Under the pieces are notes generated by a model. It was given only the letters and a program-made list of their open reading frames with translations. It ran no database searches and was not told the DNA's origin. Shown here piece after piece: positions 8,222 through 26,786 of a stretch of DNA of 48,773 nucleotides; the stretch's first letter is position 1, and each line of letters starts with the position of its first letter. The DNA is taken from assembly GCA_016839745.1 (NCBI GenBank), contig JAEOTS010000026.1:1-48773 (forward strand). Reading direction: 5' to 3'. The position numbers and the translations under genes are program-made. Origin of the DNA: Promethearchaeota archaeon. GTDB taxonomy: Archaea; Asgardarchaeota; Lokiarchaeia; Sigyniarchaeales; SOKP01.

Positions 8222-10543
8222 TTAGAGATAAACATCGACATCTTTTTTAGGGAATGAATTAATAATCTTCAATAGCCCTGTTCCAGTCTTTAATTTTTCA
8301 ACTTCCTCAGCATATATAGGGTAGTAATTGTTAAAAATCTTGTATACACTATTCCATGACTTTTGCTCTTCAGTTTTCTCTCCTATCTCTTTCCTAAGTT
8401 TAGAAAAAATGGCTTTAGCTTTTTTACGATTTAAAAATTTGACAAAAATCTTGATTACTTTAATCTTAATTTTCTTGTAAACTTCCGGTCTAAAATTAGC
8501 AAGTGCATAACTTAAATCGTCATCTGCAATCGGAAAAAAGTTTATTCTTCTGTCTTCAGGTTCGTCGGGATTTTTAATTAAATCTAGTTCTATATCTCCT
8601 TCACTGATGTTTTCTAATATTGGATAGAGTTGACCTGGAGTAATTCTTGTTTCCATTTGAATTTCAGAAGCAATTTCTGAAATCGAATAATTGAAGTCAG
8701 GGTATTTTTCTGGATTTTCAATTCGGTAAGTGTATTCGTTTTTTAGTATTTCCAGAATTGCATTTTTTAACGAGCTCGGGATTTCTTTTTGAATAAAAGA
8801 GATTGAAATATCTTTCTGTTTTTGTTCAAACGATAACTCGTCCTTTTGTTTCTTTGTATAATCAGTAGCAAGAGAGGATATAAATTTATCTGAAGCTTTA
8901 TCATTATCAGCACTGACTTTCAAATCAAGTTTCTTAGGCTTCTTCGAAGTCATCGTGCTGTAAAGTCTATCTGATAGATATTTTTTCGCTTTTTTCTGAG
9001 CGATGGCTTTTTTATCAAATTTTTCAAGAACCGAAGAAAAATCTACAATCTTTTGTAACCTTCCGTTTTGATCTCTTTCTTCTGTTAGGCTAATATTCAT
9101 GTCTATATTCGCTAAATCCTCGATTAAAGAGTAGATGTTGTTTTTCGAGAGTCGCGTTGCTCTTATTAACTCACGCTCTAAAATCTCAAGTGGATAACCT
9201 GCTCCTCTGCGTAAATATTCGCTTCTTATTAACTTATAAATTATATCCATACTTTTTTCTTCTTGATTAATCGTTTCTTTTTGTAAACGTATAAACATCG
9301 AGGTTTCGTGTGGTTTTAAATAATAAAATAGCAGAGTACTCCCAAGGAATATAATCATTATTATAGAAACAATATACTTATCTGCCATGAAGAACTGGCC
9401 TAGTAAAGTAACTTCTTGATTTGGTAACTGAGATTGTAACGCAAAACGAGTGAGTGTTTGAGCAAGGACACACCCTAGTATTAGCAATATTAAACCATCT
9501 CTTTTAAAAATAATAAATCTCCATTCTAAAGAACGACCTAATTTTTTTATAATTCTATATAAGAAATACATTGAAAAAGCAAATTCAATAATAAAGATAA
9601 ACCATACTGTCGAACTACTTGCTCCAACTGTAGCTTTTAATGCTGTGACAGTAGCAGGATTTAATATTAAAAACAAGGTTAATTGAAATACCTGAAAGAA
9701 AAAAATGAATAAAACTATCAATGAAAAAGTATAATTGTCAAACAGTCCTGCCCGTTTTGTCTCAGCTCTCCGTCTCGTAAAAACAAACTCAAAAATAATA
9801 AATAACAATGTTAATATTAAGCTAAAATAGATCAATGGCATAATCAAACGCATTTCTAATACATAAACTCCTACTGCTTCACTAGGGGCAGAAGGTCCTA
9901 GAAAATCTAGTGATATATAAACTAATAAACTTCTGTAAAACAGTGCTATTACAATCAATACTCCTAATATAAAATATGGAGAGATAAAAGCAATATATCT
10001 ACGCACTGACGAATATTTAGTTATGAAGCGTGCTTCAATTTTTGTCGCAAACTTTCTTGAATACATAAAAAACCTAGTACTCAATAAAATAAGCCATATT
10101 GTTGATAAACCTAAGAGATAACTTATGAAATTGATACTAAGGTTATTAATGAATATAAAGAGCAAGTAGAACCCGGAGATAATACTTAAATATAATACAA
10201 CTTGTTTTATTATTGAATTTTTCTCAAAAATGAAAACTCTGATCTTATCATTGCTGTATAGTATGGATAATGCAAGAAAAAAAGCTACTAATGCGTTTCC
10301 AAATGCAAAAGGATTTCCAAAAGTTAGAATATTTAGGTAAGTACCGGGAAAATTAATCCCTATTAAAATCAAAAATGAATAGATTAAAAATATAACATAT
10401 AATCCAATGAACTTCCTTTCTCCAAAATACGATTTTGATGGTTGTTGTCCCTCTACATATAAATCATGTACGAATATTTTTCGAATATTCTGCTGAAGAG
10501 ATTTCTTGATTTTTACGATATTTTCTTTAGCTTTCATTTTCAT
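8222..10543 (-). CDS. Polytopic membrane protein with soluble C-terminus containing two winged-helix-like repeats
   Basis: About 410 aa hydrophobic N-terminal half (~10-11 TM); repeats IIYKLIRSEY...YPLEILERELIRATRLSKNNIYSLIEDL and AILEILKNEY...YSISEIASEIQMETRITPGQLYPILENI. Confidence 0.6.
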   Translation of the reverse strand: MKMKAKENIVKIKKSLQQNIRKIFVHDLYVEGQQPSKSYFGERKFIGLYVIFLIYSFLILIGINFPGTYLNILTFGNPFAFGNALVAFFLALSILYSNDKIRVFIFEKNSIIKQVVLYLSIISGFYLLFIFINNLSINFISYLLGLSTIWLILLSTRFFMYSRKFATKIEARFITKYSSVRRYIAFISPYFILGVLIVIALFYRSLLVYISLDFLGPSAPSEAVGVYVLEMRLIMPLIYFSLILTLLFIIFEFVFTRRRAETKRAGLFDNYTFSLIVLFIFFFQVFQLTLFLILNPATVTALKATVGASSSTVWFIFIIEFAFSMYFLYRIIKKLGRSLEWRFIIFKRDGLILLILGCVLAQTLTRFALQSQLPNQEVTLLGQFFMADKYIVSIIMIIFLGSTLLFYYLKPHETSMFIRLQKETINQEEKSMDIIYKLIRSEYLRRGAGYPLEILERELIRATRLSKNNIYSLIEDLANIDMNISLTEERDQNGRLQKIVDFSSVLEKFDKKAIAQKKAKKYLSDRLYSTMTSKKPKKLDLKVSADNDKASDKFISSLATDYTKKQKDELSFEQKQKDISISFIQKEIPSSLKNAILEILKNEYTYRIENPEKYPDFNYSISEIASEIQMETRITPGQLYPILENISEGDIELDLIKNPDEPEDRRINFFPIADDDLSYALANFRPEVYKKIKIKVIKIFVKFLNRKKAKAIFSKLRKEIGEKTEEQKSWNSVYKIFNNYYPIYAEEVEKLKTGTGLLKIINSFPKKDVDVYL

Positions 10544-10703: not shown

Positions 10704-10991
10704 ATGCACATGGAAAATCAGCCAGAAAAACCAGACAAAGAAACCTTGATAAACCTTGTCAAGCAAGGAATTGAAATGTTAGCTGAAAAGAACATTTCAA
10801 ATGTAATAATTTTATCCTCTTACAAAATTAATTCAGTTTTAAAAGATAACTACGGAGTAGACATTAAAGTCGATAGAATTGGGAGAATTTTAAGTACAGT
10901 AGCTAAAAATAATCAATTAAAACGTCTTGGTACTAACATCCCCAAATACAAGTTACAGATATCGAAAGTTTCGGGACTTCAATATTATTAA
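10704..10991 (+). CDS. Small hypothetical protein, probable winged-helix fold
   Basis: Helix-strand-helix-turn-helix-hairpin pattern (LSSYKINSVLKDNYGVDIKVDRIGRILSTV...KRL...KYKL). Confidence 0.55.
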   Translation: MHMENQPEKPDKETLINLVKQGIEMLAEKNISNVIILSSYKINSVLKDNYGVDIKVDRIGRILSTVAKNNQLKRLGTNIPKYKLQISKVSGLQYY

Positions 10992-11083: not shown

Positions 11084-12466
11084 TTATTTCTTAACATTCC
11101 TGAAATCTGGAATTATAGATTGAAGTCTTTCTATTAATTCTTCAAGCTCGACGAAGTCATTATTAAATTGTTCGAGTTCTGAAATTATTTTATCATAATT
11201 AGTACTTAAATTTAATTCAAAGGGGTGATTTATAGCACTAATTCCTTTTAACATGTCAATCGAGAGATTTTCGATTAGATATGTCAAATTGGAGATTTGA
11301 TTGGTTGAGTTCTCTATTCTTTCTTTTATCTTTTTATCTTGCATTGAAAGTTCATACAATTTATTAATGGTTTCATTAAGATCTTTCTTTATAGATTGAG
11401 AGATAGATTCGATGCTCTGCTCTAAGTTTTTATTAATTTCACTTGCTAAACTTTCTTTAATCTTGTCTGTATTAGTTTTTAATTCTTCTTGGCCTTCAAT
11501 ACGCTTCTTTATGTATCCCTCTATTTTCCCTTTATATTCGTCAATCCTTTCTTTAAAATTGATATCTATCCATTTTTCTACTTTTTCAAAACCATGATTT
11601 ATTGCCAAGTTCATATGTGCAAGAGAATCGCTAATTCTATTTAGACCTATTAGTGCTCCATCGTTAAATTCCATAGACCATGCTTCTAACTCCGTTTTGT
11701 AATTATTCAAGACTAAGTTAGAAAAATTTTGAAGTCCTTTCTTTACTCCTTCTACAACCGGTTCAATATTAGGATATTTTAATTCGATATCAGAATCCAA
11801 TTGCTCCACAGACAAAGGAATTTCTTGAAGATCGGGAGGAGTTTGATCGTTCATCTCTAGTTTCTCTCGAATTATTATTGGGTTTTTTGTTTGACCATAT
11901 TCGACGAGTTTTTGGACCCACCTATAAAAATCTAAAGATTTGGGTGCTTCTATTTCATATTTAACTTTAATAGTGTTACTTTTTTCTCCCTTTTTGGGAT
12001 CTTCTAGTCGAAAGACTTCCAAACCGAAATTACTCCCTTTTTGAAGTTTGGAATGATCAAAAACAATTCCAAAAGCACTGGGAATTTGTTCATTCTGAAA
12101 ATAAAGATGATTTTTTTTGTCAACATCAGAAAAGAAAATCGATTTGCTGTCAGGATGACTGTGGTACCACCCTAATAACTCAAAATTCTCATTTTCAGCC
12201 TCTTCTTTAGTTTGTACTAGAACCTTATGAACTTTTTCGGAAAATCCTAATTCAACAGTGTCACCATGAGTTACAGGAATAGCTCGGCTTACATTAATAT
12301 TGTTATTATTAGGATCTCTACTGCCTAGGCAAAATCCCAAAACTTGATCATTATAATCTAGTGAAATATTGGCAAACCTTAAGACATGTGAAAGCATGTC
12401 TTTGAACGCGCTCATCTTTATGAAAATATTTCCGTTTTCACTCGCTACTTTTTTGTTGTCAGTCAT
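11084..12466 (-). CDS. MPN/JAB1 domain protein with long C-terminal coiled-coil; catalytic Glu replaced by Gln
   Basis: DQVLGFCLG (Q at the Glu position), AIPV, GWYHSHPDSKSIFFSDVD, GIVFD; heptad-rich helical tail of ~230 aa. Confidence 0.85.
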   Translation of the reverse strand: MTDNKKVASENGNIFIKMSAFKDMLSHVLRFANISLDYNDQVLGFCLGSRDPNNNNINVSRAIPVTHGDTVELGFSEKVHKVLVQTKEEAENENFELLGWYHSHPDSKSIFFSDVDKKNHLYFQNEQIPSAFGIVFDHSKLQKGSNFGLEVFRLEDPKKGEKSNTIKVKYEIEAPKSLDFYRWVQKLVEYGQTKNPIIIREKLEMNDQTPPDLQEIPLSVEQLDSDIELKYPNIEPVVEGVKKGLQNFSNLVLNNYKTELEAWSMEFNDGALIGLNRISDSLAHMNLAINHGFEKVEKWIDINFKERIDEYKGKIEGYIKKRIEGQEELKTNTDKIKESLASEINKNLEQSIESISQSIKKDLNETINKLYELSMQDKKIKERIENSTNQISNLTYLIENLSIDMLKGISAINHPFELNLSTNYDKIISELEQFNNDFVELEELIERLQSIIPDFRNVKK

Positions 12467-12468
12467 TT

Positions 12469-13923
12469 TTAATCAGTACCTCCTTTTTCAAGTTCTTTAA
12501 TTTTCGATAAGAGTAGTTTTTTTTCTGATTCTAATTTATCAATCTTATCAAAAATAGGAGTTTTTGTGCCTTCCAAAATTAACACTGCTGCTTTCAAGTT
12601 AGTTAAGAATTTCTGCGACTTTTTATTTAGATCAGTAAGAAAATTTAATGCCTTACTCTGCTTCTTTGACGTAACATCGGATGTTTCTTTTTGCATCTTT
12701 TTTATTTTTTCAAGAGTTGTTTCCTTTATAGAGTTGATTTTTTCTGATAAGGAGTTTAAGGAGGTTTCAAGTTTTTCCAAATTATCTAAATTAACTGAGA
12801 TATTACTATTGAAATCTACTATTTTCTTATGACATTCGTTATAATCTCTTGAAAAATCGCTTTTTAATCCATCAAACTTTTCTTTAAATAATCTACTTAC
12901 TTTCTCTTCGACGATTTCTTTTATTTCATTTAAAATAGTATTAATTTCTCCCTGATACACATCGATTTGGTCTAAAAAATCGTCAACAAAGCCTTCTGCA
13001 TTAAATAATTCTGCGTTTAAATCATCCTTATATTTCCTTTGTATTTGGTCTATTCCTGAGTTTATTAGTTCTTTTAGCTGATTTAAATTTGTACTAATTT
13101 CTATATTATGATTTTCAATATCTCCTGAAATATTTGTGCTGATGGAATTAAGGAAATTTATTAAAGGGGTAAGAGACAAATCTAAAAAATTTGCGAGACC
13201 TAATTGAAATGATTCTATAACCTTACGCTGATCGATTGCGGGTTGTTTAAATTGTAATTGGTTTAGTTCAGGAACTTTTACATCCCCGAATATATCAGCG
13301 GTCTCATTTTCTTCCGTTATGGGAGGTTCTTTTGTATGAACACAATTAATTAATTCAACTATTTTAAAATAATAATCAAGGCTATCTGGGGGTTCTACTA
13401 TCGTTGTAACTTGATGAAAACTTGAATCTCTGATGTCTGTAGGGTTGGTTAAACGGATTGCTCTAAATCCTGGATCATTAGGGCTATCCAAATAAGCGTG
13501 ATCAAACACTAAAGCTATTCCACTAGGGTTCAATTCGTTTTGCCATCCAAATTGATTCTTAACATCGGTCGGTGAAAAGAAAATTTTGTGCTGGAATAAA
13601 TCGGGGTGGCTATGATACCAACCAACCATGAACCAATTTTTTTCTAAATACATGGAATTGGCTTTTTCAAAAAAGATATAATCATTAATTGAAAATTCAA
13701 CTTCTACACTACTTCCGTGCGAAATAGGTACTACATCCTCCACTACGACATTCTTAAATTTTTTATCTTCGCCATCTTCGAGATGTCCAATGAGAACACC
13801 CATAACTTCAATACACTGAGAGTGATTTCTAGCTTTATTTCCAAAACGTAAGACATGTAGAATTATTTTATAATAAGCATCAGGTTTAATCTTTACTACA
13901 CTATTATCTACATCTTTCCCCAT
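12469..13923 (-). CDS. MPN/JAMM (Rpn11/CSN5-like) metalloprotease with long C-terminal coiled-coil
   Basis: IEVMGVLIG, GWYHSHPDLFQHKIFFSPTD, ALVFD; ~250-aa helical tail; stop is 2 nt from the next start. Confidence 0.9.
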   Translation of the reverse strand: MGKDVDNSVVKIKPDAYYKIILHVLRFGNKARNHSQCIEVMGVLIGHLEDGEDKKFKNVVVEDVVPISHGSSVEVEFSINDYIFFEKANSMYLEKNWFMVGWYHSHPDLFQHKIFFSPTDVKNQFGWQNELNPSGIALVFDHAYLDSPNDPGFRAIRLTNPTDIRDSSFHQVTTIVEPPDSLDYYFKIVELINCVHTKEPPITEENETADIFGDVKVPELNQLQFKQPAIDQRKVIESFQLGLANFLDLSLTPLINFLNSISTNISGDIENHNIEISTNLNQLKELINSGIDQIQRKYKDDLNAELFNAEGFVDDFLDQIDVYQGEINTILNEIKEIVEEKVSRLFKEKFDGLKSDFSRDYNECHKKIVDFNSNISVNLDNLEKLETSLNSLSEKINSIKETTLEKIKKMQKETSDVTSKKQSKALNFLTDLNKKSQKFLTNLKAAVLILEGTKTPIFDKIDKLESEKKLLLSKIKELEKGGTD

Positions 13924-14172
13924 TTTTAGTCACTTTATCATTTAGAAATTGAACAAATATTATTATTAGATTTATATTTTTAACAATTATAATTTTAAGC
14001 ACTTAATATAAATGTATAGTAAATGATAATTTATTCTTCTTTTTCATTTATATCTTTTTTTTCTTCTTTAAATTCTATTAAAAATGTCGTGATCCCAAAG
14101 TTTCAAAAAATGTTTAAAGATCTATATTTGCATACAATTTTAAAAAGGAATTATAAAATAAAATTTATTTAA

Positions 14173-14817
14173 TTAATGCGGCAGAGGTTTTCCGCAGTAT
14201 GGACAGAATTTCCATCCTATATCTTTTCCACAATGAGGACAGAATGTCGAGGTTTCGACTCCCTCTCCTTTTGGAATTTGTGGTAACTCTCTTGTTGTTT
14301 TTATTGTAGATGGAGACGGTTGTTCCACACGCACTCTCTCTTCTTCCTTTTTGAATTTCATTCTTTCTTGGAACGCTTGACGTTTTTCATCATCCATCTC
14401 TTGAACCGATTTCATTCCCTCTTCCTTAACCCATCCTTTTACCACAGGTCTTTTTAGTTCGCTAACAGGAACCTTCTCTAACTCCACTTTTTTAGCTTCG
14501 GAAATGGGAGCTACAACTTTCTTTTCTTCCCTCTTGGTAATAGCTTGTTTAGTTAAGGCTTGAGTAGTTTTCATAATTTGGTGAGGATTAATATTTGGAA
14601 TTGCTACTGTCCTTAATACCCAACCCACGATGAGATTTTGATTAGGGAAACCAGAAGCACTCAAATCTTCATCCTTATAAACATATGACTCTATTAAAGA
14701 GTTTCCTTTTAGCAAACGAGAAGCCCACTTGCCGTTTATAAGCCCTAGCTGAATTCTATATGATGTCCCGGGGATTCCTAATTGGCTACTAAGGGGTTCA
14801 AATCCTTTTTCAGAAAT
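14173..14817 (-). CDS. Hypothetical protein with charged linker and C-terminal double zinc ribbon
   Basis: Ends FCPHCGKDIGWKFCPYCGKPLPH. The frame is open upstream of TTG 14715 (SEKGFEPLSSQLGIPGTSYRIQLGLINGKWASR); start placed at ATT 14817 behind GAGTTGAT. Confidence 0.7.
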   Translation of the reverse strand: MSEKGFEPLSSQLGIPGTSYRIQLGLINGKWASRLLKGNSLIESYVYKDEDLSASGFPNQNLIVGWVLRTVAIPNINPHQIMKTTQALTKQAITKREEKKVVAPISEAKKVELEKVPVSELKRPVVKGWVKEEGMKSVQEMDDEKRQAFQERMKFKKEEERVRVEQPSPSTIKTTRELPQIPKGEGVETSTFCPHCGKDIGWKFCPYCGKPLPH

Positions 14818-15073
14818 AATTATATCAACTCTAATTAGTATATATTCTATTTGCTCGGATTCAGATTTAATTTAATGAAATAATAATATAATCATAAGTT
14901 TTGACTTTAAATAATTTTATGTTTAACCAAGCAAAATCAATTTTTTCATAGTTATAATATTTATGGTTTAATACTCCTTCGCCTACAGAATCGCGTATTA
15001 TAAGTAAAAATAAAGACATAAATATGGGCATTTGTATACACTTATCAAATCAATAAGCTATTAAATTTTAGAA

Positions 15074-16024
15074 ATGACGGTTTTTATTCCGAAGGAAGTT
15101 TACTTAACTACCGTTGCTGCCTGTGTTAGATTTGCCAATCAACGTATCGATAAAGACGATTGGCTTGAGGTTTCAGGTATCTTCATTGGAAAAAATGAAG
15201 GAGAAGATGTATATATAACAAAATCATACCCAATAATGCATCAAGAATTAGATAGAGACGCTGTAATTGATCAATATAAATGGAGTGACGAAGATTATGA
15301 AGCATTATATATTATTGATGAAGAGGCATTTTCAAAGGGAGAATTCACCGTTGGTTGGTGGCACAGTCATCCAGGTTTCAAGATTATGATGTCACATATT
15401 GATATTAAAACAACTTTAAGTTACCAAACTAATAATACTCTTGCTATCTCATTGGTTTTTAATCCTGAAAGGTTAGTGAGACAAATTGAACTTCCTATTA
15501 AAAAAGGAGATCCCGTTAAACAATTAGATGGCGATCCCGGGTTTAAGATCTTTAGATTAGATGATGTATCTAAAGGAATTCAAGCTTCATACCATACTGT
15601 AGAATATGTTATTAAAGGCTATGAAAACCAAGAACAAATAGTCCCATTAACACAGAAATTCATTATCGACATCACGAATATGTTCCCAAAAGAAAATATA
15701 TTTGAAACCTACGAAAAATTCATAACTGATCGAATCAGCGAGCTAAATTCGTTATTACAAGGAACTGATGAATATTTAAACACATTAATAAGAAAAGGAG
15801 AATCTGGTAGGATTCATGAAGTCCTAGAAAATCAAACTCGAGACATTCGAAAATATGTTGCTGAAACTTTTATAAGAATAGAAAATATTAAACAATTCAT
15901 GAATTACTTAGAATTTAAAGAGAGAAATATGATTATACCTAAAATTGAAGAGATATTATCTCAATGGGATGAAACTGTAGCAAATTTAAACGCAAAACTA
16001 ACTGAAATAGCTAAAAAATTTTAA
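15074..16024 (+). CDS. MPN/JAMM metalloprotease with C-terminal helical bundle
   Basis: LEVSGIFIG and canonical H-x-H-x7-S-x2-D (GWWHSHPGFKIMMSHID), ISLVFNP. Confidence 0.9.
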   Translation: MTVFIPKEVYLTTVAACVRFANQRIDKDDWLEVSGIFIGKNEGEDVYITKSYPIMHQELDRDAVIDQYKWSDEDYEALYIIDEEAFSKGEFTVGWWHSHPGFKIMMSHIDIKTTLSYQTNNTLAISLVFNPERLVRQIELPIKKGDPVKQLDGDPGFKIFRLDDVSKGIQASYHTVEYVIKGYENQEQIVPLTQKFIIDITNMFPKENIFETYEKFITDRISELNSLLQGTDEYLNTLIRKGESGRIHEVLENQTRDIRKYVAETFIRIENIKQFMNYLEFKERNMIIPKIEEILSQWDETVANLNAKLTEIAKKF

Positions 16025-16154
16025 TTATTGAAAAACTTGAATGATTTTTATTTTTTCTGTTATTCCTATTTTTAATCTATTGTTTAAAGGGGAAATCTTT
16101 ATTTTAATGATTGATTTCTCTACTGTATAAATTAATTAGCTAATTTAGATTATT

Positions 16155-18362
16155 ATGCGTAAAGCTCAATTTCCATTTGTTGCTATTTTAGGACAAGATA
16201 GGATGAAACTCGGACTCATATTGAATGTAATTGATCCCCAAATCGGTGGAGTTTTGTTAACTGGTCAACAAGGCACTGGAAAATCAACGGGAGTTCGCTC
16301 TCTCGTAGAAGTTATGCCTGATATTGAAATTGTTAAAAATTGTCAGTTTTCGTGCAATCCAAAATCTCATATTGATGATCTCTGCATAGAATGCCGCGTA
16401 AGAAAAGAAAAGGGGGAATTAGAAATAGAATTTAAGGAAATGCGTCTAATTAATTTACCATTAGGAGTTACAGAAGATATGGTAACAGGATCTCTCTCTA
16501 TTGATAAGGTCTTAACTGAAGGGATCAGGAGTCTTCACCCTGGACTTCTCGCTAAAGCTAATCGTGGTATCCTTTATATCGATGAGATAAATTTACTCCA
16601 AGATCATATAGTCGATACCTTATTAGATGCTTCTGCTTCTGGTGTGAATATTATTGAAAGGGAAGGAATCTCGGTTATGCATCCCTCTCGGTTTATATTA
16701 GTGGGCAGTATGAACCCAGAAGAAGGCGATCTTCGCCCACAAATAGCTGATAGACTAGGTTTAGAGGTAAAAATAAAAGCTCCACGAGATGCAAAACTAC
16801 GAGCTGAAATCACAAGGAGAGTTATAGATTTTGACGATAATCCAAAAGCATTCATTAAAAAATACGAGCAAGAACAAGAAGAGCTAAGAAAAAAAATTGT
16901 AAGGGCGCGTGAATTGATTAAGAGTGTCAAAATTCCTTCCTCAGTTTATGAATTTGTCTCTAGATTAGTTAACGAATTGGATATTTTTTCACAAAGAGCT
17001 GATATAACATTTATCAGATGTGCTCGTGCCCACGCTGCTCTTCATGGAAGAACTGAAGTTGTAGAAGAAGATTTAAACGCAGCAATGGATTTAGTTTTCG
17101 AACACAGAATAAAATCGCTCCATTATGAAATGACCCCACAAGAAGTCAAGGCAAAAATAGTCGAAGTGTATGGAAAGATACAAAAAGCCTACGAAGATCC
17201 AAAAACCTATAGGCCAAATAAAGAAACTGAAGGACCTTTAAAGCACGATGATACTCCCCAAAAGGAATTCAAGCGTCAATCTGTTGATCCTAAAAAAGTC
17301 GATATTCCAGAAACTAAAGAACAAAAGCTACCTCCCCCTAAATATCCCGACAACAAGAAAAGAACTCCCTCACCTGCTGGAGGCTGGAAAGTAAAAGATA
17401 TACCAGAATATGACGAACGAGAATTCAATTTTTTTGAAAATGGAATTGAATCGCTACCATTAATTTACCAAATGGAAACAAAAATGACTTCTGTATTAGA
17501 TACAATTAGAAAAGATAGAAAAGTTTCCGATTATGGCGGTAGGGGAATTGGAAGGCGCATAAAAATCGCTTCTTCTCAAAAAGGTAGGTATGTCTCATAC
17601 AGAAGGCCGCTTAATCGTCCTAAAACTATTGCTCTCGATGCAACAATACGGAGTTATTTAAAAAATACAATTTTCAACCAGACGGATATAGAATTTCCAA
17701 TTAAATTTAATAAATATGATTTAATGGATAAAATTTACGAGTATCGAGCTCCCCTAGTGCTTTTTTTCGTTCTCGATAGCTCAGCTTCAATGTATTATGT
17801 AATCAAACAAATGACAGATGTTATTCTTTCTCTCCAGCGAGAAGGTTACAGAAAAAAAGATAAGCTAAGTTTAATTATTTTTAGGGCAAAAGAGGCAGTT
17901 GTTCTTCAAAAACCTACGGTTTACTTCAAATCTGCCGTTAACAAACTCAAAAAAGTTGAAGGAAAGTCTTATACCCCTATGGCCGCAGCGTTGACAAAAT
18001 GCTTAAAGTTAATTGACGCTGAAAAATTAAAGAATAGAAACATAATTCCGGTTGTTTTCGTCTGTAGCGATATGGGAGCAAATATATCCTATAAATATCC
18101 TGACTTAATCGCTCAAGTCCAAACAGATTACACTTTAATTGTTAACGAATTAAAAGCTTTGACAAAACAATTATCTAAAAAAGGAGCACATATGGTGGTG
18201 TTAGAACCGAAGAAATCATATGCAACTAGGGCTTTAGGAGTAAATACCTTTGCTGCTGACAAGATTAAAAAGAATTTTAAAAAATACGGAAGCGCTGAAA
18301 TATTCCAATTCGATAGGGTTAATCCAAAAAACTTAATTTTAGAACTGAAAAAAATACTTTAA
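16155..18362 (+). CDS. AAA+ ATPase-vWA fusion (Mg/Co-chelatase ChlI/ChlD-like)
   Basis: FPFVAILGQD, Walker A GQQGTGKS, Walker B LYIDEINLL, GSMNPEEG, Pro/charged linker, MIDAS DSSAS, TPMAAAL, SDMGAN. Confidence 0.9.
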   Translation: MRKAQFPFVAILGQDRMKLGLILNVIDPQIGGVLLTGQQGTGKSTGVRSLVEVMPDIEIVKNCQFSCNPKSHIDDLCIECRVRKEKGELEIEFKEMRLINLPLGVTEDMVTGSLSIDKVLTEGIRSLHPGLLAKANRGILYIDEINLLQDHIVDTLLDASASGVNIIEREGISVMHPSRFILVGSMNPEEGDLRPQIADRLGLEVKIKAPRDAKLRAEITRRVIDFDDNPKAFIKKYEQEQEELRKKIVRARELIKSVKIPSSVYEFVSRLVNELDIFSQRADITFIRCARAHAALHGRTEVVEEDLNAAMDLVFEHRIKSLHYEMTPQEVKAKIVEVYGKIQKAYEDPKTYRPNKETEGPLKHDDTPQKEFKRQSVDPKKVDIPETKEQKLPPPKYPDNKKRTPSPAGGWKVKDIPEYDEREFNFFENGIESLPLIYQMETKMTSVLDTIRKDRKVSDYGGRGIGRRIKIASSQKGRYVSYRRPLNRPKTIALDATIRSYLKNTIFNQTDIEFPIKFNKYDLMDKIYEYRAPLVLFFVLDSSASMYYVIKQMTDVILSLQREGYRKKDKLSLIIFRAKEAVVLQKPTVYFKSAVNKLKKVEGKSYTPMAAALTKCLKLIDAEKLKNRNIIPVVFVCSDMGANISYKYPDLIAQVQTDYTLIVNELKALTKQLSKKGAHMVVLEPKKSYATRALGVNTFAADKIKKNFKKYGSAEIFQFDRVNPKNLILELKKIL

Positions 18363-18392
18363 GTTCAAATTTAACTTCTTATTATTTAATTA

Positions 18393-19640
18393 ATGAGCAA
18401 TAAAGAAGAATCTGTTTTAGTTGCTGGTTTCAACACTCGCCCTTTAGTTTATTCTTTAAACAGAGCAGGGTTTGAAGTGTATGCAGTTGATTTCTTTGGC
18501 GACTTAGACCTTTATTCCTATGTTAAAGATTGTTTAATACTTACCAAGAAGTTAAGCGTAGACTATGATGTAATTAAAAATATTTATAGTGAATACCTCC
18601 CCATCTTAATTCTAGAGCTCTTAGACAAATATCCTGAAATCAAATATCTGATTATTGGAAGTGGTTTAGACGACGCTATAGAAGAGAGAGCTCTCATTTT
18701 AAAAGAGATAAATCGAAAGAAATACAGAATTCTTAACCTTAATAACGAATTAGAAGCTATTAAAAAGAGCAGAGATACAGACTTCATTTTAAATATTTTA
18801 ATAAAAGGAGGTTTTGATGTTCCAAGAACAGTTCCCTTCGAAGAAGTTAGGTCTAAAGTTAACGAGTTAGAATACCCATTTATTTTAAAGAAAGGGAGTG
18901 GTTCTGGTGGAACAAATGTATATAAAATACAAAACAAATCCGATCTCTCCTTTACCATCAACCTAATTAATAGAGAAACTTTCGATCCAAAAGATTGGCT
19001 AATGCAAGAATATATAGAAGGAAATCCGGTAAGTTGTACGACAATATCTAACGGAGTAGAAACCAAAGTAATTTCGGTAAATAATCAGGTAGTGGGAGAT
19101 AAATATCTGAATGCTCCAAAAGAATTTATGTATTGTGGGAATATAGTTCCTGCTAATTTATTTGAAGAAGAAAAGAAGTTGATAGTTGATATTTCGTTAA
19201 AGTTATCGACAGAGTTAGGTTTAAAGGGAATTAACGGGTTTGATTTCGTTTTAAGAAACCACTATCCATATTTAATGGAGATCAATCCCCGAATTCCGGG
19301 ATCAATTAGAGCTTCTGAAGAAGCAATGAACATAAATCTATTAGATTTGCATATAAAGAGTTTTACAGACAAGGGGTGGGAATTCGTCAAAAAGACGCTG
19401 AAGGATGCGAAATTCGAAAATTTTTCAACTAAGATTATTTTCTTTGCTCCTAAAGAAATCGATAAAATTTTATTGAAAAAAATTAACGACCTGGAATATG
19501 TTCACGATAAGTCGGAACCAGTCAAGAACATTTACAAAAACGAGCCAGTTTGTACTATCTTATTTAAGGCTAAATCTTTTTCTGATTCTTATTTGGGTAG
19601 TTTAAAAGTAGTAGAAAAGATAAAAAAGATAATCAAATAG
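18393..19640 (+). CDS. ATP-grasp domain ligase (archaeal COG2232-like)
   Basis: AGFNTRP, VDFFGDLD, PFILKKGSGSGG, MQEYIEG, GINGFDF, MEINPR. Confidence 0.85.
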   Translation: MSNKEESVLVAGFNTRPLVYSLNRAGFEVYAVDFFGDLDLYSYVKDCLILTKKLSVDYDVIKNIYSEYLPILILELLDKYPEIKYLIIGSGLDDAIEERALILKEINRKKYRILNLNNELEAIKKSRDTDFILNILIKGGFDVPRTVPFEEVRSKVNELEYPFILKKGSGSGGTNVYKIQNKSDLSFTINLINRETFDPKDWLMQEYIEGNPVSCTTISNGVETKVISVNNQVVGDKYLNAPKEFMYCGNIVPANLFEEEKKLIVDISLKLSTELGLKGINGFDFVLRNHYPYLMEINPRIPGSIRASEEAMNINLLDLHIKSFTDKGWEFVKKTLKDAKFENFSTKIIFFAPKEIDKILLKKINDLEYVHDKSEPVKNIYKNEPVCTILFKAKSFSDSYLGSLKVVEKIKKIIK

Positions 19641-19648
19641 CCTAAGAA

Positions 19649-20386
19649 TTATTGTTTAATAATCGATTTGATTTTAGCTATATGACTTCTTAGGATTTTC
19701 TCATCTCCTTCAGACACAGCAATTGCGAGTATCCTACTCTCGTCTAATTCGTGGATAATAATCGAACCATGATCTCCTCCAATTATCGAGAATTCTAAAC
19801 CTCCATCTAATAATATTCCTGCTAAATTATAAATCGCGGAAGTCATTGCGGATATAATCGGTTCAGGCATAGTAGATTGAACTTTAATGGGTAAACCATC
19901 TTTTGTGATGATGGCGATGACTAACGCATTTGGAATTGCTCTTTTAAGAGCCACAAAGATTTCTTCCTTGATGAGATCGCTCGTTTCTATAATTGCAGAC
20001 ATTCTTATAGCAAATTTTCTCAGTGATCGTATGTAAGAATCTAACCCTTCAAGTTCTGCTAATTCCCTATCTAAATAGGCGATTAGGGCCATATAATCTG
20101 TTAAAATTGATAGGATTATTCTTTTTTGTCCAGTAATTAAGGTATACGAGCTTTTTTGGTTTAAAGAGTCGATTAACATTTTAGACGAAAGGAACACCAA
20201 GCTACTACTCGCAGCAGAGAGTTCAGATTTTGTCATCTTGATATCTTCTTTTAACTCACTCACAATATGTGTTCCTCCGTGCGTTGAGATAGAAATACCG
20301 AGAATGCTTTTCTGGTCTTTAATTTCGTTATTTAATAAATCTGTTAACTCATAATTTAATTGTTTCATATGGTCTTCTTTAGACAT
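19649..20386 (-). CDS. Tandem roadblock/LC7 (LAMTOR/MglB-like) domain protein
   Basis: Two ~120-aa units: ILGISISTHGG...ELSAASSSL and ALVIAIITKDGLPI...IISAMTSAI...IIGGDHGSIII. Confidence 0.85.
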   Translation of the reverse strand: MSKEDHMKQLNYELTDLLNNEIKDQKSILGISISTHGGTHIVSELKEDIKMTKSELSAASSSLVFLSSKMLIDSLNQKSSYTLITGQKRIILSILTDYMALIAYLDRELAELEGLDSYIRSLRKFAIRMSAIIETSDLIKEEIFVALKRAIPNALVIAIITKDGLPIKVQSTMPEPIISAMTSAIYNLAGILLDGGLEFSIIGGDHGSIIIHELDESRILAIAVSEGDEKILRSHIAKIKSIIKQ

Positions 20387-22718: not shown

Positions 22719-25700
22719 TTGGGTGAGAATAATTTGAGTTCAATTAAAAAATCTAATTTAAATATTAATGAGTTAATATCGGAAGACGAAAAGCTTACGT
22801 TTTTAGTAGGGGCTGGAGCTTCAGTTGAATCTCCTTCACAATTACCTGCAGCGAGTGAAACGATTAAAGCACTCATTAAATTTTCATGTGCCAAGTCAGA
22901 AATAGATAAAATCTTGAAAATACAAGATTTACCATTTGAAATTTTAGCAGGAATTATTCTTGAATCATTGGATGATGTGAAATTTCTGGATTTTTATCAA
23001 GAAAGTGATAAACCCAACCTTGAACATTTTGTTTTAGCTGAAATGATCAAGAAAGGGCACTTCATTATAACTACCAACTTCGATTTTTTACTAGAATATG
23101 CTCTTCTACAATCGGACATTCCTAAAAAGAAAATCATTCCGGTAATAACGGAAAAGGATTATGAGAGATTCAGTGATCCAGAAAAGTTGTATCGGAGCGG
23201 AAAATTTCCTGTTTATAAAATTCATGGTTCTCCTAAAAATATAATCACAGGAGAAGATACAAGAAAATCTTTCATAAATACTTTAAAATTAATCGGATTA
23301 AACCAGACTAAGAACAATATTATCCAACTTGAACCCTATAAAGCTCAATTCTTAGAAAAAACCTCATCAGAACGCACACTTATAATAATGGGATATTCAG
23401 GTAAGAATGATTATGATCTCATTTCGACACTTAAAATCATGGACGATTTGAAAAATCTAATTTGGATAAATCATGTTTCAGATAGTAGAGCTAAAGAAGA
23501 TCTTTATGAATTTGGGAAACCAAAAAGTAGCGAAATAAGCGAAATGGATGATTTAGATCAAAGTCTTTTAGATATTAAGAGATTAAACGAATCTGTTAAT
23601 GTATACAGACTAAATGTCAATACCCCTAAATTTCTTGAGAAACTCTTAAAGACTAAAGAGGAGTTAAGCAAAGATAAATTCGATATTGATTTAATGGAAT
23701 GGTTTAAATCTAACGTTAATGAACCAAGCGAAATAATAAAGTTATACATTTCGAATAAAATTTATTTCGAAACTAAAAATTATAATGATTCGTTAAGATG
23801 TTTAGAAAGAATTTTTCGAATAGGCGAAGACTCAGGAGATAATCAGTGGAAAGCAATTTCCCTTATGGAAATGGGCATTATCAATTACGCACAAATGAAT
23901 CATAAGGATGCGTTAGAATGGTTGCGGAAAGCTTTACAAGTTCAGCTCAAAATTAAGATATTTCCTCAAAGAGTAACTATTTTCAAGTACTTAGGTCTTT
24001 CTTACCAAGCTCAACAAAATTATACTGAAGCAATTAGAAATTTTGAATTTGCCTTAAAAGAGAATGAAAAAATCAAGGATTTTAACGAAAAATCTAAAAT
24101 ATTAAAGCATCTTGGCATAGTATACCAAAACCAGGAAAATTACGAGGAAGCTTTGAAATATTTTGAATCTGCCATTAAATTTAATGAGAGATCCGAAAAT
24201 CTCACTGAAAAAGCTATGAATTATAAACTCAAGGGTAAAATTTACTATTCAAAAAAGAATTACGAAGAAGCCCTTAACCAATTTAAGCAAGCTCTGGAGC
24301 TTAGTGAAACTTTAGAAAATCTCGAAGATAAAGCAGAAATTCTAAATATTCTAGGCCGAATATCTCATGAGATGGGAGATTCGCTCACTGGCCTGGAAAA
24401 ATGCAATGAAGCGTTAAGACTCTATGATTTATTGCAAAAGAAAGAAGGAATTCTATTCGCTCTAAATTCTATTGGTATTATTTATAGTGATCAATGGAAT
24501 TATCCAAAAGCGTTCGAGAACTTTGAAGAAGGGTTTCAAATTGCGGAAAAAATGGGGAACAATCTACTACAAGCCAAATTTTCAAACCAGATAGGCTCAA
24601 TATTTCAAAAACAAGATAAGCATTTAGAAGCCTTAAAATGGTTCGAAGATTCCTTACAATTCTATGACCAAGCAGGAGAAGTTAAGGGTAAAGTTGATGT
24701 CTTAAGAAATATGGGATTAATATACAAGGAACAGAAATCTTACATAAAGGCTTTAAAGCGATTTGAAAACGCATTCGAAATATTTGAACAACTAGAAGAC
24801 TTAAACAATCAAGCATCTACTCTTACTATTATTGGACAAATCTATCTAGATCAAAGAAATTTCGCAGCGTCGTTAAGTAATTTTGAAGAAGCTTTCCGAA
24901 TTTATGGAGAAACGGAAAATCTTGAAGGAAATGCAGAAATTCTGAAAAATATTGGAAATTACTACGCTGAACAAGCTAATTTTAAAGATGCTTTGAGTAG
25001 GTATAAAGATGCTCTTGAGATTATCAAAAAAATTGGGAAAGTTGATAAAAAAGCCGAACTTCTAAATATGACTGGGATAATTTTCCAAGATCAAGGAGAC
25101 TATTCACAAGCTCAGCAAAAATTTGAGGAAGCATTTGAGATATTCAGTAAAGATAATAATATGGAAGGTAAAATTGAGAGTCTTCATTTAATCGGTAAAA
25201 ATTATCATTATATAGGAAAGGACAGTTTAGCATTAGATAAATTTGAGGAAGCGATTAGAATTGCTGAGCAGATTGGAAATTTACATAAAAAAGCAGTCTG
25301 TTTGAACATCACAGGTAAGATTTTTCGAGAACAATGGGATTTTGTTGAAGCTTTAAAACGCTACGAAGAAGCTTTGCTTATCGCAGATCAATTAGGTCAT
25401 TTGGAAGAGCAAGTTGAAATCCTTAATATCATTGGTGAGATTTATCAAGCTCAAAAGCATTATCCCGAAGCCGTAAGGAGATTTAACGAGGCAATATATG
25501 TTGCAGAAAGCTTAGGAAATCTTGAAATTAAAGCGGATATTTTTGCGAGTATAGGTGATATTTATTATGACGAGGATAATTATCTTGAAGCGTTAAAGTT
25601 ATACGAAGAAGCATTAAGCATTGATGAACAACTCGGAAACATGAAAGGAAAAGCTAATAGACTTCTTTGTATCGGTAATATATTCCTTGTCCGTAAAAAG

Positions 25701-26786
25701 TACCCCGAAGTTTTAAATAGATATAAAGAAGCTCTAGTAATTGAAGAACAACTAGGTAATCTTACAAACCAAGCAACAATTGTACGTAAGATTGGAGATA
25801 TCTTTAGGGATCAAGAACATTATCAAGAGTCTTTAAAATGGTATCAAGAAGCATATAAACTCTTCGACGAAATTGAAAACCTTGAAGGCAATGCGGATTG
25901 TTTTGAAAGCATCGGGTTAATTTATCAAGAATTAGACAATCATCCTGAAGCTCTCAAGTGGAACAATGAAGCATTTAAAATTTCAGAACAAATCTATGAT
26001 GAGGAAAGAAAAGCGCGAATTCTTTGTAGAATCGGTGTGCTCTTTCACAAACAGGGTGTGTATAAAGATGCGTTTAAGCGTTATAATTTAGCACTTGAGA
26101 TATTTGATCAAATTGGTGACTTAAATGGTAAATCATACTGTTTGAATAAAATAGGGTTAGTGTATCAAGACCGTGGCGATTATAACCAAGCACTTAAGTG
26201 GTACGATCGTGGAACAAAACTATTTAAAGTTTTAGGTCCATCAGATGAGAGAGCTGAAAATCTATTTAATACTGCTATGATCTATAGAGATCAGGGATTA
26301 TACCTTGACGCATTGAAGACATTCGAAGAATCTCTGAACATAGATGAGGAGTTAAAAAATTATTCCCGAAAAGCAGAAAGCCTTAATAACATAGGTTTAA
26401 TATATTTAGATGAAGGTAATTATCCCGTTGCGTTAAAACGCTTTGAAGAAGCAGCAAAAATAGCAGATCGGAACGAAGACAGGAAAAATAACGCTAAATA
26501 TTTAAATAATGTAGGTTTAGCTTTTCTAAACGATGGGAAATATACCGAAGCATGGAAAAAATGTAATCAGGCTCTAAAAATATACGAGGAGCTTGAAGAA
26601 AGTGAAGGAATCGCTGAAAGTCAATATAGATTAGGATTAACTTACCTAGAACAGAAGTCTTATGCTGAAGCTTTAAAAAACCATCAAGACGCACTTAATA
26701 CGCTTATTCAAGCAGGTTCGGAAAAATCTCCTGTTGTAAAGGTTCTTAAAAGCAATATAAAGTTAATTAAAAGCAAAACGAAATAA
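22719..26786 (+). CDS. SIR2-like domain fused to ~25 TPR repeats
   Basis: FLVGAGAS, PNLEH, ITTNFD, KIHGS, MGYSG; then ~1000 aa of 40-residue TPR-like repeats (KA..L..IG.IY..Q..Y.EAL..FEEAL.I). Confidence 0.9.
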   Translation: MGENNLSSIKKSNLNINELISEDEKLTFLVGAGASVESPSQLPAASETIKALIKFSCAKSEIDKILKIQDLPFEILAGIILESLDDVKFLDFYQESDKPNLEHFVLAEMIKKGHFIITTNFDFLLEYALLQSDIPKKKIIPVITEKDYERFSDPEKLYRSGKFPVYKIHGSPKNIITGEDTRKSFINTLKLIGLNQTKNNIIQLEPYKAQFLEKTSSERTLIIMGYSGKNDYDLISTLKIMDDLKNLIWINHVSDSRAKEDLYEFGKPKSSEISEMDDLDQSLLDIKRLNESVNVYRLNVNTPKFLEKLLKTKEELSKDKFDIDLMEWFKSNVNEPSEIIKLYISNKIYFETKNYNDSLRCLERIFRIGEDSGDNQWKAISLMEMGIINYAQMNHKDALEWLRKALQVQLKIKIFPQRVTIFKYLGLSYQAQQNYTEAIRNFEFALKENEKIKDFNEKSKILKHLGIVYQNQENYEEALKYFESAIKFNERSENLTEKAMNYKLKGKIYYSKKNYEEALNQFKQALELSETLENLEDKAEILNILGRISHEMGDSLTGLEKCNEALRLYDLLQKKEGILFALNSIGIIYSDQWNYPKAFENFEEGFQIAEKMGNNLLQAKFSNQIGSIFQKQDKHLEALKWFEDSLQFYDQAGEVKGKVDVLRNMGLIYKEQKSYIKALKRFENAFEIFEQLEDLNNQASTLTIIGQIYLDQRNFAASLSNFEEAFRIYGETENLEGNAEILKNIGNYYAEQANFKDALSRYKDALEIIKKIGKVDKKAELLNMTGIIFQDQGDYSQAQQKFEEAFEIFSKDNNMEGKIESLHLIGKNYHYIGKDSLALDKFEEAIRIAEQIGNLHKKAVCLNITGKIFREQWDFVEALKRYEEALLIADQLGHLEEQVEILNIIGEIYQAQKHYPEAVRRFNEAIYVAESLGNLEIKADIFASIGDIYYDEDNYLEALKLYEEALSIDEQLGNMKGKANRLLCIGNIFLVRKKYPEVLNRYKEALVIEEQLGNLTNQATIVRKIGDIFRDQEHYQESLKWYQEAYKLFDEIENLEGNADCFESIGLIYQELDNHPEALKWNNEAFKISEQIYDEERKARILCRIGVLFHKQGVYKDAFKRYNLALEIFDQIGDLNGKSYCLNKIGLVYQDRGDYNQALKWYDRGTKLFKVLGPSDERAENLFNTAMIYRDQGLYLDALKTFEESLNIDEELKNYSRKAESLNNIGLIYLDEGNYPVALKRFEEAAKIADRNEDRKNNAKYLNNVGLAFLNDGKYTEAWKKCNQALKIYEELEESEGIAESQYRLGLTYLEQKSYAEALKNHQDALNTLIQAGSEKSPVVKVLKSNIKLIKSKTK

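Follow-up and report, generated by a model that had tools for sequence, protein, structure and literature searches.

Introduction

In a 48,773-nucleotide stretch of DNA from a Lokiarchaeial Asgard archaeon (Promethearchaeota archaeon; assembly GCA_016839745.1, contig JAEOTS010000026.1; the whole stretch is called the window below), three genes for MPN/JAMM proteins (MPN_A, MPN_B and MPN_C) are found together with genes for a zinc-ribbon protein, an AAA+-vWA ATPase and an ATP-grasp ligase, and the question raised by this locus is whether the six of them encode one multi-subunit machine. A first interpretation made from the letters of the DNA (the sequence-only reading) had proposed so, namely an isopeptidase/remodeling complex analogous or ancestral to the eukaryotic 19S and BRISC/BRCA1-A particles. 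The answer favored here, with a probability of roughly 55%, is that the stretch brings together separable modules, specific to one Lokiarchaeial order, and is not one operon-encoded machine. The best-supported part is the tandem pair MPN_B/MPN_A, an active-type enzyme beside a decaying one, both on long coiled coils. In the proteasome lid, the COP9 signalosome and BRISC, catalysis centers on a pair of an active and an inactive MPN protein, and to our knowledge such pairs have so far been regarded as an invention of eukaryotes.

As contig C147, the window forms part of an Asgard metagenome-assembled genome (MAG) of 3.5 Mb (89% complete, ~31% guanine plus cytosine), which belongs to the same order as Promethearchaeum syntrophicum MK-D1 and to another family. 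Families are designated f1 (that of the source genome), f2, f28 and so on, and genera g4, g55 and so on. Domains were assigned to the open reading frames (ORFs) of the window by Pfam and NCBIfam profile scans. No description of these families was found in the literature on Asgard MPN/JAMM, vWA, Roadblock and chelatase proteins; new here are the analysis of the AAA+-vWA and ATP-grasp proteins, a conserved five-gene block, and the counts of catalytic residues over cluster representatives. The six genes, with lengths in amino acids (aa), are as follows.

11084..12466, minus strand: MPN_A, 460 aa; MPN domain (PF01398, 41.6 bits) and coiled-coil tail of ~260 aa
12469..13923, minus strand: MPN_B, 484 aa; MPN domain (PF01398, 51 bits), disordered linker and helix of ~230 residues
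14173..14817, minus strand: zinc-ribbon protein, 214 aa from an ATT start; Zn_Ribbon_1, 26.7 bits; divergent to MPN_C
15074..16024, plus strand: MPN_C, 316 aa; JAMM domain (PF01398, 48.9 bits) and C-terminal helical domain
16155..18362, plus strand: AAA+-vWA protein, 735 aa; Mg_chelatase, AAA_lid_2 and VWA_2
18393..19640, plus strand: ATP-grasp_3 ligase, 415 aa; PF02655, 102 bits

Much of what had been read from the letters agrees with these assignments. PF01398 scores above cut-off in all three MPN ORFs, and the N-terminal motifs (HVLRFAN in MPN_A, HVLRFGN in MPN_B and ACVRFAN in MPN_C), the motifs of the HxH region (GWYHSHP, GWYHSHP and GWWHSHP, respectively) and the continuation of the plus arm into the AAA+-vWA and then the ATP-grasp_3 gene (Pfam) are all present. 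The helical tails expected for the MPN proteins appear as AlphaFold2 helices in MPN_C and MPN_B and as a heptad signal in MPN_A and MPN_B.

An active-type and a decaying MPN protein encoded in tandem

MPN_B lies 2 nucleotides (nt) upstream of MPN_A in the window, and the gap between the two measures 1-13 nt at all loci with unambiguous starts; co-translation of the two is probable. Relatives were collected by a cluster search over 1.84 billion representatives, which led to 310 related clusters, 45 of them at E <= 1e-30. Clusters were sorted into A-type and B-type according to their similarity to MPN_A or MPN_B, and the JAMM residues E, H, H, S and D were counted. All five are intact in 19 of 19 B-type clusters (E39, H104, H106, S117 and D120 in MPN_B) and in 5 of 26 A-type clusters, the other 21 having at least one change. 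Of these 26, 14 retain the Glu, 13 the first His, 22 the second His, 18 the Ser and 24 the Asp; MPN_A of the window reads QHHSD, with Gln at the position of the catalytic Glu. One tandem pair thereby shows the active/degenerate signature of MPN+/MPN- heterodimers.

The same division is found in a maximum-likelihood tree of the MPN domains, where the upstream (B-type) copies form one clade (support 100/98) and the downstream (A-type) copies another (support 94/91) with longer branches. Each clade covers the families f1, f2 and f28, so the duplication predates these families. The strict conservation of the five JAMM residues in MPN_B, as in MPN_C, argues for catalysis. MPN_B is, by its predicted activity, an active-type JAMM isopeptidase, and MPN_A is, judged from residue counts and branch lengths, a fast-evolving paralog of it that is shedding catalytic residues.

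The AlphaFold2 model of MPN_B consists of the MPN domain, a disordered linker (residues 199-250) and a single helix (251-480; predicted local distance difference test, pLDDT, 73). Heptad periodicity reaches 0.40 in the tail of MPN_A and 0.42 in that of MPN_B, more than 5 standard deviations above the 0.25 +/- 0.03 of shuffled tails. In the proposed working of this module, parallel coiled coils of ~230 residues would pair MPN_B with MPN_A and set the active MPN domain beside the pseudo-active one, as in BRCC36-Abraxas, Rpn11-Rpn8 and CSN5-CSN6; we infer that the two proteins heterodimerize, for which the 2-nt gap, the single long helix and the heptad periodicity are indirect signs. A co-variation in length between the A and B tails (r = 0.85) was dropped, as one short pair drives it and r falls to 0.14 without that pair. 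In Pfam, both proteins also show matches to UPF0172, the family of EMC8/9.

The pair recurs in the f2 genera g55, g60, g61 and g62 and in f28 (loci L016-L021), accompanied there by no other gene of the locus except an occasional homolog of the coiled-coil, 773-aa or 95-aa protein introduced below. It was not found in g7, g58 and g59, which retain MPN_C, the zinc-ribbon gene and the AAA+-vWA gene.

In plan, MPN_B/MPN_A resembles BRCC36-Abraxas and BRCC36-KIAA0157, the cores of BRCA1-A and BRISC, where a paralogous MPN+/MPN- pair is held by a C-terminal helix or coiled coil, and the vWA subunit MERIT40 of those complexes has a possible echo in the vWA protein of the window. The differences are that the tails of MPN_A and MPN_B (~230-260 residues) are far longer, that MPN_A is only partly degenerate, and that no UEV (BRCC45-like) subunit or MERIT40-like stand-alone vWA subunit is linked to the locus. 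An independent origin is likely, since the clades are restricted to one order and the MPN domain has no specific affinity to BRCC36 (E-value 8e-11, against 3e-14 for the archaeal CsRpn11). If the pairing is real, this Lokiarchaeial and probably independent case would mean that JAMM proteases readily come to have pseudo-enzyme partners as soon as a ubiquitin system is in place, and MPN_B/MPN_A would offer a simple two-protein model of it.

MPN_C and the protein encoded opposite to it

MPN_C is modeled by AlphaFold2 with high scores (pLDDT 92; predicted template modeling score, pTM, 0.87) as an MPN domain (residues 1-181) followed by four helices (186-315). Its JAMM residues are invariant in 18 sequences, and in the tail G230, Y234, K260, E280, E283 and W298 are invariant down to 32-40% identity; unlike the tails of MPN_A and MPN_B, this one is without heptad periodicity. 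By profile the best matches are CsRpn11 (3e-14; 3.4e-14 unrounded), CSN5 (3e-13), Rpn11 (5e-12), BRCC36 (8e-11) and AMSH (1e-8). By fold, CsRpn11 superposes at Z 18.0 with a root mean square deviation (rmsd) of 1.9 A over 142 residues, Rpn11 and CSN5 follow at Z 17-18 and EMC8/9 chains at Z 16-17, and BRCC36 chains are also among the top matches. No solved chain superposes on the tail in this whole-model fold search, in which the tail was not queried as a separate domain (rmsd 12-20 A with the tail included).

The MPN proteins are therefore eukaryote-like, of Rpn11/CSN5/BRCC36 type with C-terminal helical extensions, as had been noticed from the letters, and by these comparisons their MPN domains prefer no eukaryotic MPN family. 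The suggestion that the locus could be ancestral to the eukaryotic assemblies is not supported, as none of the clades reaches beyond one Lokiarchaeial order and the MPN domains score equally well against CsRpn11, CSN5 and Rpn11. Full-length MPN_C orthologs were found only in the order that holds MK-D1: they are 60-93% identical in many MAGs labeled Promethearchaeota or Promethearchaeia, and one of 40% identity lies on the complete MK-D1 chromosome (NZ_CP042905.2, 4,324,194 bp; genome G162).

The divergent gene encodes a longer protein than the ORF list suggested, beginning ~34 codons before the TTG of that list with an ATT (14815-14817, minus strand) where relatives have ATG, GTG or TTG. A paralog on contig C116 likewise has ATT at the ortholog start position (L031:6486-6488, minus strand), and GTTGAT precedes the ATT by 5-6 nt in both genes; in the C116 paralog an in-frame TAA stands two codons upstream, so translation must begin at the ATT or at the ATA that precedes it. 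In the protein, a conserved N-domain of ~100 aa is joined by a linker rich in K and E to a single four-Cys ribbon (CPHC...CPYC) at the C-terminus. The "double" zinc-ribbon of the sequence-only reading was hence a single one, the DZR match being partial and below cut-off. In the alignment the conserved part is the N-domain and not the ribbon, and the MK-D1 counterpart has a coiled-coil end in place of the ribbon. The N-domain matched nothing in Pfam at E up to 10, the protein had no meaningful PDB profile match (best 0.022, a ribosomal protein), and a structure search retrieved only its own cluster.

The gene is present in 37 of the 41 genomes of the order, and the divergent arrangement with MPN_C is kept in f1 (except g4) and in the f2 genera g55, g58 and g59 (MK-D1). 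The N-domain itself (~95 aa, window 14515-14817) is also found in the Asgard families f3, f6, f7, f8, f12, f13, f19 and f21, either as stand-alone proteins of 98-114 aa or opening proteins of 285-390 aa. No MPN gene occurs within 10 kb in 12 of 12 N-domain loci of other Asgard classes (L128-L139), so the link of the N-domain protein to MPN_C is specific to the order. In this second module MPN_C would be a compact, stand-alone active JAMM enzyme with a helical domain of its own, working with the divergently encoded, Asgard-wide N-domain protein, here equipped with a zinc ribbon and probably acting as adaptor or substrate receptor.

Some further observations concern the surroundings of MPN_C. 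In the f2 genera g7, g58 (convergent) and g59 a TFIIB-like gene lies just downstream of it (L005:8584-9447, L023:10909-11760 and L024:12868-13719), and in g7 a TBP gene is divergent to it. A MAG named 'Candidatus Nanopelagicaceae bacterium' carries an 81% identical MPN_C (DATKTW010000008.1, L043) and another Lokiarchaeial MPN gene (DATKTW010000100.1, L099); this bin is probably mislabeled or contaminated.

An orphan chelatase-type motor and its neighbors

The AAA+-vWA protein is built of a ChlI-type AAA+ domain, a K/E/P-rich linker and a vWA domain with a metal ion-dependent adhesion site (MIDAS), and its motifs are intact (Walker A 37-45, Walker B D143-E144, MIDAS DSSAS 541-545). Three chelatase families were scored (TIGR02442, TIGR02030 and TIGR02031). 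The protein matches TIGR02442, a putative cobaltochelatase fusion, over positions 6-692 with 574 bits, below the cut-off of 779, and it also stays below the cut-offs of two further families (BchI-ChlI, 388 vs 467 bits; the other, 327 vs 500 bits). CobN (PF02514) was not found in the 89% complete source genome, in keeping with the earlier description of the AAA+-vWA protein as an orphan, nor in 14 of 21 f1 genomes, several of them 100% complete; in the 7 f1 genomes that have it, CobN lies beside a second paralog of 660-680 aa. In the tree the MPN-linked f1 copies and their f2 orthologs form a clade of their own (support 100/100, stem 0.66), outside which fall all CobN-adjacent copies and the copies of other Asgard families near SPFH or CobN genes. 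In one of those families a homolog adjoins CobN (L013), and in f19 and f8 the homologs adjoin SPFH genes, and no homolog of an MPN gene or of another gene of the window occurs within 10 kb of them. Being below cut-off, without CobN and in its own clade, the protein is, as far as these comparisons tell, an order-specific ChlI/ChlD-fusion paralog and a motor free of CobN. A role of this clade as a true chelatase subunit was rejected, because in most carriers no CobN was found and the clade is separate from the CobN-adjacent copies.

Gene order gives this motor another set of companions. The first 30 kb of the window (~27 genes) were compared with the matching regions of four f2 genomes, where only MPN_C and the genes for the AAA+-vWA, a Roadblock and a coiled-coil protein recur in all four, joined by the zinc-ribbon gene in three. 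The Roadblock and coiled-coil genes, common to all five regions compared, lie as follows in the window.

19649..20386, minus strand: Roadblock/LC7-domain protein, 245 aa; PF03259, 24.7 bits
20588..21469, plus strand: coiled-coil protein with C-terminal globular domain, 293 aa; divergent to the Roadblock gene

In f2 the AAA+-vWA gene lies 0.05-8 kb from this pair and 13-40 kb from MPN_C, the intervening genes including CTP synthase, an MFS transporter, hydrolases and TFIIB; only in f1 is it directly adjacent to MPN_C. There, in the window, the spacer of 131 nt contains T-runs and a TATA-like box, which suggests that the AAA+-vWA gene is on a transcript separate from MPN_C. The range of the orphan AAA+-vWA clade coincides with that of full-length MPN_C, both being found only in the order. 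A further tie is seen on contig C116 (10666-12815; L031:5661-7815, minus strand), where a 435-aa protein with a response-regulator receiver domain forms a fusion with a second version of the 293-aa coiled-coil protein (79% identical), followed directly by the zinc-ribbon N-domain paralog (86% identical); this mini-locus ties the coiled-coil and N-domain families independently of the window.

The ATP-grasp gene starts 30 nt downstream of the AAA+-vWA gene, and in the four f1 loci that reach past AAA+-vWA (L001, L003, L007 and L009) it follows at 30-60 nt. An ortholog was not found in g7, g58, g59 and g62, that is in four of the five f2 genomes searched, and g55 gave only a partial match of 32% identity; the gene is, from this distribution, an addition specific to f1. 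No NCBIfam equivalog reached cut-off for the protein, and no solved close relative names its substrate.

As a third module, the ChlI-type AAA+ motor with its own MIDAS "hand", freed from the service of CobN, would most likely act on a protein client, remodeling or loading it, alongside the Roadblock and coiled-coil proteins, whose genes are always close by, the ATP-grasp ligase having joined it in f1. The orphan protein is a clear example of a chelatase motor that has parted from the subunit which binds the porphyrin.

Several features beside this gene were also recorded. A four-Cys cluster (C-x3-C ... C-x2-C) is inserted in the AAA+ domain at residues 63-81 (window 16341-16397) and may be a zinc knuckle. 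In f2, two ORFs of ~226 aa precede the AAA+-vWA gene and overlap its start (L014:9156-10559; L015:8513-9927), with no Pfam family and no homolog in the source genome. A MoxR-like AAA_5 ATPase (~650 aa) and a DUF58/vWA-like protein (~620 aa) are encoded facing the AAA+-vWA operon in g7, g58 and g59 (L032, L033 and L034); the same kind of pair stands in g55 directly after MPN_C, behind a guanylate-kinase-like gene (G154, L027:4615-9190), and in the source genome on another contig (C89:12030-15496).

The ubiquitin system of the source genome

Whole-genome profile scans found no ubiquitin, E2 (conjugating) or E1 (activating) match on the window contig, and the statement that the window has no ubiquitin-like, E1 or E2 gene stands; extended to the genome it fails, as contig C144 carries a cluster of ubiquitin, E1 and E2 genes and contig C37 E1 and E2 genes. 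Substrates for JAMM enzymes therefore exist, and the MPN enzymes of the window most likely remove the archaeon's own ubiquitin. On contig C104 (7681-9019, L039) a 276-aa MPN gene adjoins an E2 gene, and is likely the canonical Rpn11-like deubiquitinase of this organism. Two more MPN paralogs were observed: one of 510 aa on C93:62483-64805 (L038), followed by a 228-aa protein with weak zinc-ribbon matches, and one of 417 aa on C4:82404-83657 (L037), flanked by genes for a P-loop kinase and for Alba.

A lid-like layout, as the sequence-only reading had pictured it, finds no convincing PCI-domain partner. The scan with PF01399 gave no match on the window contig and only marginal ones (<=25 bits) inside large proteins on other contigs, and in a control the profile also matched genomes without PCI complexes.

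One system or separable modules

Within f1 the entire neighborhood is syntenic, including CopA and the MFS transporter, so contiguity there is little informative. Across the order, MPN_C, the zinc-ribbon gene and the AAA+-vWA gene do stay within 13-40 kb of one another, in agreement with the expectation of a conserved neighborhood. The proposal that all six gene products form one isopeptidase/remodeling particle nevertheless appears unlikely. In such a particle the MPN trio would be the deconjugating core, the zinc-ribbon protein a receptor, the AAA+-vWA protein a motor and a vWA receptor in one (as Rpt and Rpn10/MERIT40 are jointly), and the ATP-grasp protein a "writer" ligase. The genes are contiguous in most f1 genomes and remain near one another in f2, the orphan AAA+-vWA clade and full-length MPN_C are order-specific, the zinc-ribbon gene is nearly order-wide and travels with the A/B pair in g4 and with MPN_C in f2, and in g55 another AAA+ protein (AAA_5) with its DUF58/vWA-like partner follows MPN_C, all of which would suit a common particle. 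Against it speak the genera g7, g58 and g59, which hold the other genes of the set and in which the A/B pair was not found, the ATP-grasp gene, whose ortholog was not found in four of five f2 genomes, the genes that separate AAA+-vWA from MPN_C in f2, the signs of separate transcripts after MPN_C, and the failure to find a PCI-type scaffold near the locus.

Comparably improbable is that the AAA+-vWA protein, with or without the ATP-grasp protein, is a metal-insertion or cofactor-maturation motor (chelatase- or MoxR-like) with a partner other than CobN and a mere neighbor of the MPN genes. The strong similarity to TIGR02442 and BchI/ChlI, the CobN-adjacent homologs in another Asgard family, the SPFH-adjacent homologs of f19 and f8 and the restriction of the MPN_C adjacency to one family point that way; the sub-cut-off score, the position of the clade apart from every CobN-adjacent copy and the carriers in which CobN was not found, complete genomes among them, point the other way, and beside the gene it is Roadblock and coiled-coil genes that are conserved instead of any cofactor-pathway gene. 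Less probable still is that the long-tailed MPN proteins do not act as ubiquitin isopeptidases and instead serve as scaffolds or tethers, in the manner of the non-catalytic MPN proteins EMC8/9, eIF3f/h and Prp8, or cleave some other tag, for instance a peptide that the ATP-grasp ligase produces. The UPF0172 matches in MPN_A and MPN_B, the EMC8/9 fold matches of MPN_C, coiled coils of ~34 nm, typical of tethers, and a window lacking ubiquitin-system genes would fit this. The five JAMM residues are, however, strictly conserved in MPN_B and MPN_C, the best matches in sequence and fold are the true deubiquitinases CsRpn11, Rpn11 and CSN5, and the ATP-grasp gene is limited to f1 whereas the MPN genes are order-wide.

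The composite of three separable modules has evidence against it as well. Since five of the A-type clusters are fully intact, MPN_A is no uniform pseudo-enzyme, and in genus g6 a 6-kb insertion separates MPN_A from MPN_B. In g4 the small 95-aa gene, MPN_A, MPN_B and the zinc-ribbon gene lie together 10-19 kb from MPN_C, AAA+-vWA and ATP-grasp, so the zinc-ribbon gene stays there with the A/B pair and not with MPN_C, which hints that the modules are not fully independent. Ubiquitin is assumed as the MPN substrate from family membership only. Finally, the order-wide 13-40 kb closeness of MPN_C, AAA+-vWA, Roadblock and coiled-coil genes exceeds what would be expected of unrelated genes and could reflect one larger system.

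That larger system is conceivable, though doubtful, in one definite form, in which MPN_C, its zinc-ribbon/N-domain partner, the ChlI-vWA motor, the Roadblock/LC7 protein and the coiled-coil protein would make up a signaling/remodeling machine in Promethearchaeales including MK-D1. In it the AAA+ ring would hold a ubiquitin-like or acidic client by its MIDAS, and the JAMM enzyme would meanwhile take off the tag, an independent archaeal counterpart of the Rpt/Rpn10/Rpn11 or Midasin-Ubl (ubiquitin-like domain) logic, and the MPN_B/MPN_A pair and the ATP-grasp ligase would have been recruited in f1. Under the composite of modules, the second and the third one, having stayed in one neighborhood across the order, may cooperate. 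The conserved company of the orphan motor, a JAMM enzyme, a Roadblock/LC7 protein and a coiled-coil/receiver protein, gives a lead that experiments can test toward a new AAA+/MIDAS client system among the cultured organisms nearest to eukaryotes. MPN_C, its divergent partner gene and the AAA+-vWA gene are all present in MK-D1.

Relation to known systems

Rpn11-Rpn8 of the 19S lid and CSN5-CSN6 share with the proteins of the window the active/inactive MPN pair with C-terminal helices and, for the MPN_C domain, a fold match of Z 17-18. They differ in that the locus has no convincing PCI partners, the MPN_C tail is not superposable and the AAA+ domain is of ChlI type and not of Rpt/PAN type. The closest match of MPN_C by both profile and fold is CsRpn11 of Ca. 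Caldiarchaeum subterraneum (PDB 6FJV/6FNN), a stand-alone archaeal JAMM that acts on archaeal ubiquitin (PMC6043591). The gene for CsRpn11 belongs to a ubiquitin/E1/E2 operon, and the protein lacks a helical tail of ~130 aa; in the source genome its role fits the 276-aa paralog beside E2 on C104.

The AAA+-vWA protein has the layout of the ChlI/ChlD motor, the MoxR-vWA chaperones and Midasin/Rea1, with a ChlI-type AAA+ domain, a charged linker and a C-terminal vWA domain with DxSxS MIDAS. ChlD and Midasin grip a client through the MIDAS and pull with the ATPase (PMC6604950, PMC8837202), and the AAA+-vWA protein would do likewise. From a chelatase motor it differs in having no CobN/ChlH found with it, in its sub-cut-off scores, in its separate clade and in its Roadblock/LC7 and coiled-coil neighbors.

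Other genes of the window

Two genes beyond MPN_A complete the neighborhood of the A/B pair.

8222..10543, minus strand: 773-aa protein, no Pfam family; loosely linked to the MPN_A/MPN_B pair
10704..10991, plus strand: small 95-aa protein; divergent to MPN_A

The 773-aa protein, taken for a membrane protein in the sequence-only reading, has no Pfam or NCBIfam match; a homolog of 32% identity lies 2.5 kb from the A/B pair in genome G163 (L017). In the f1 loci examined the 95-aa protein keeps its position, at 57-75% identity, and in f28 it is encoded on the contig of the pair, of which it is a possible companion. Farther along the plus strand, a large SIR2-plus-TPR gene occupies 22719-26786 of the window and has a counterpart of 42% identity in a related genus (L001).

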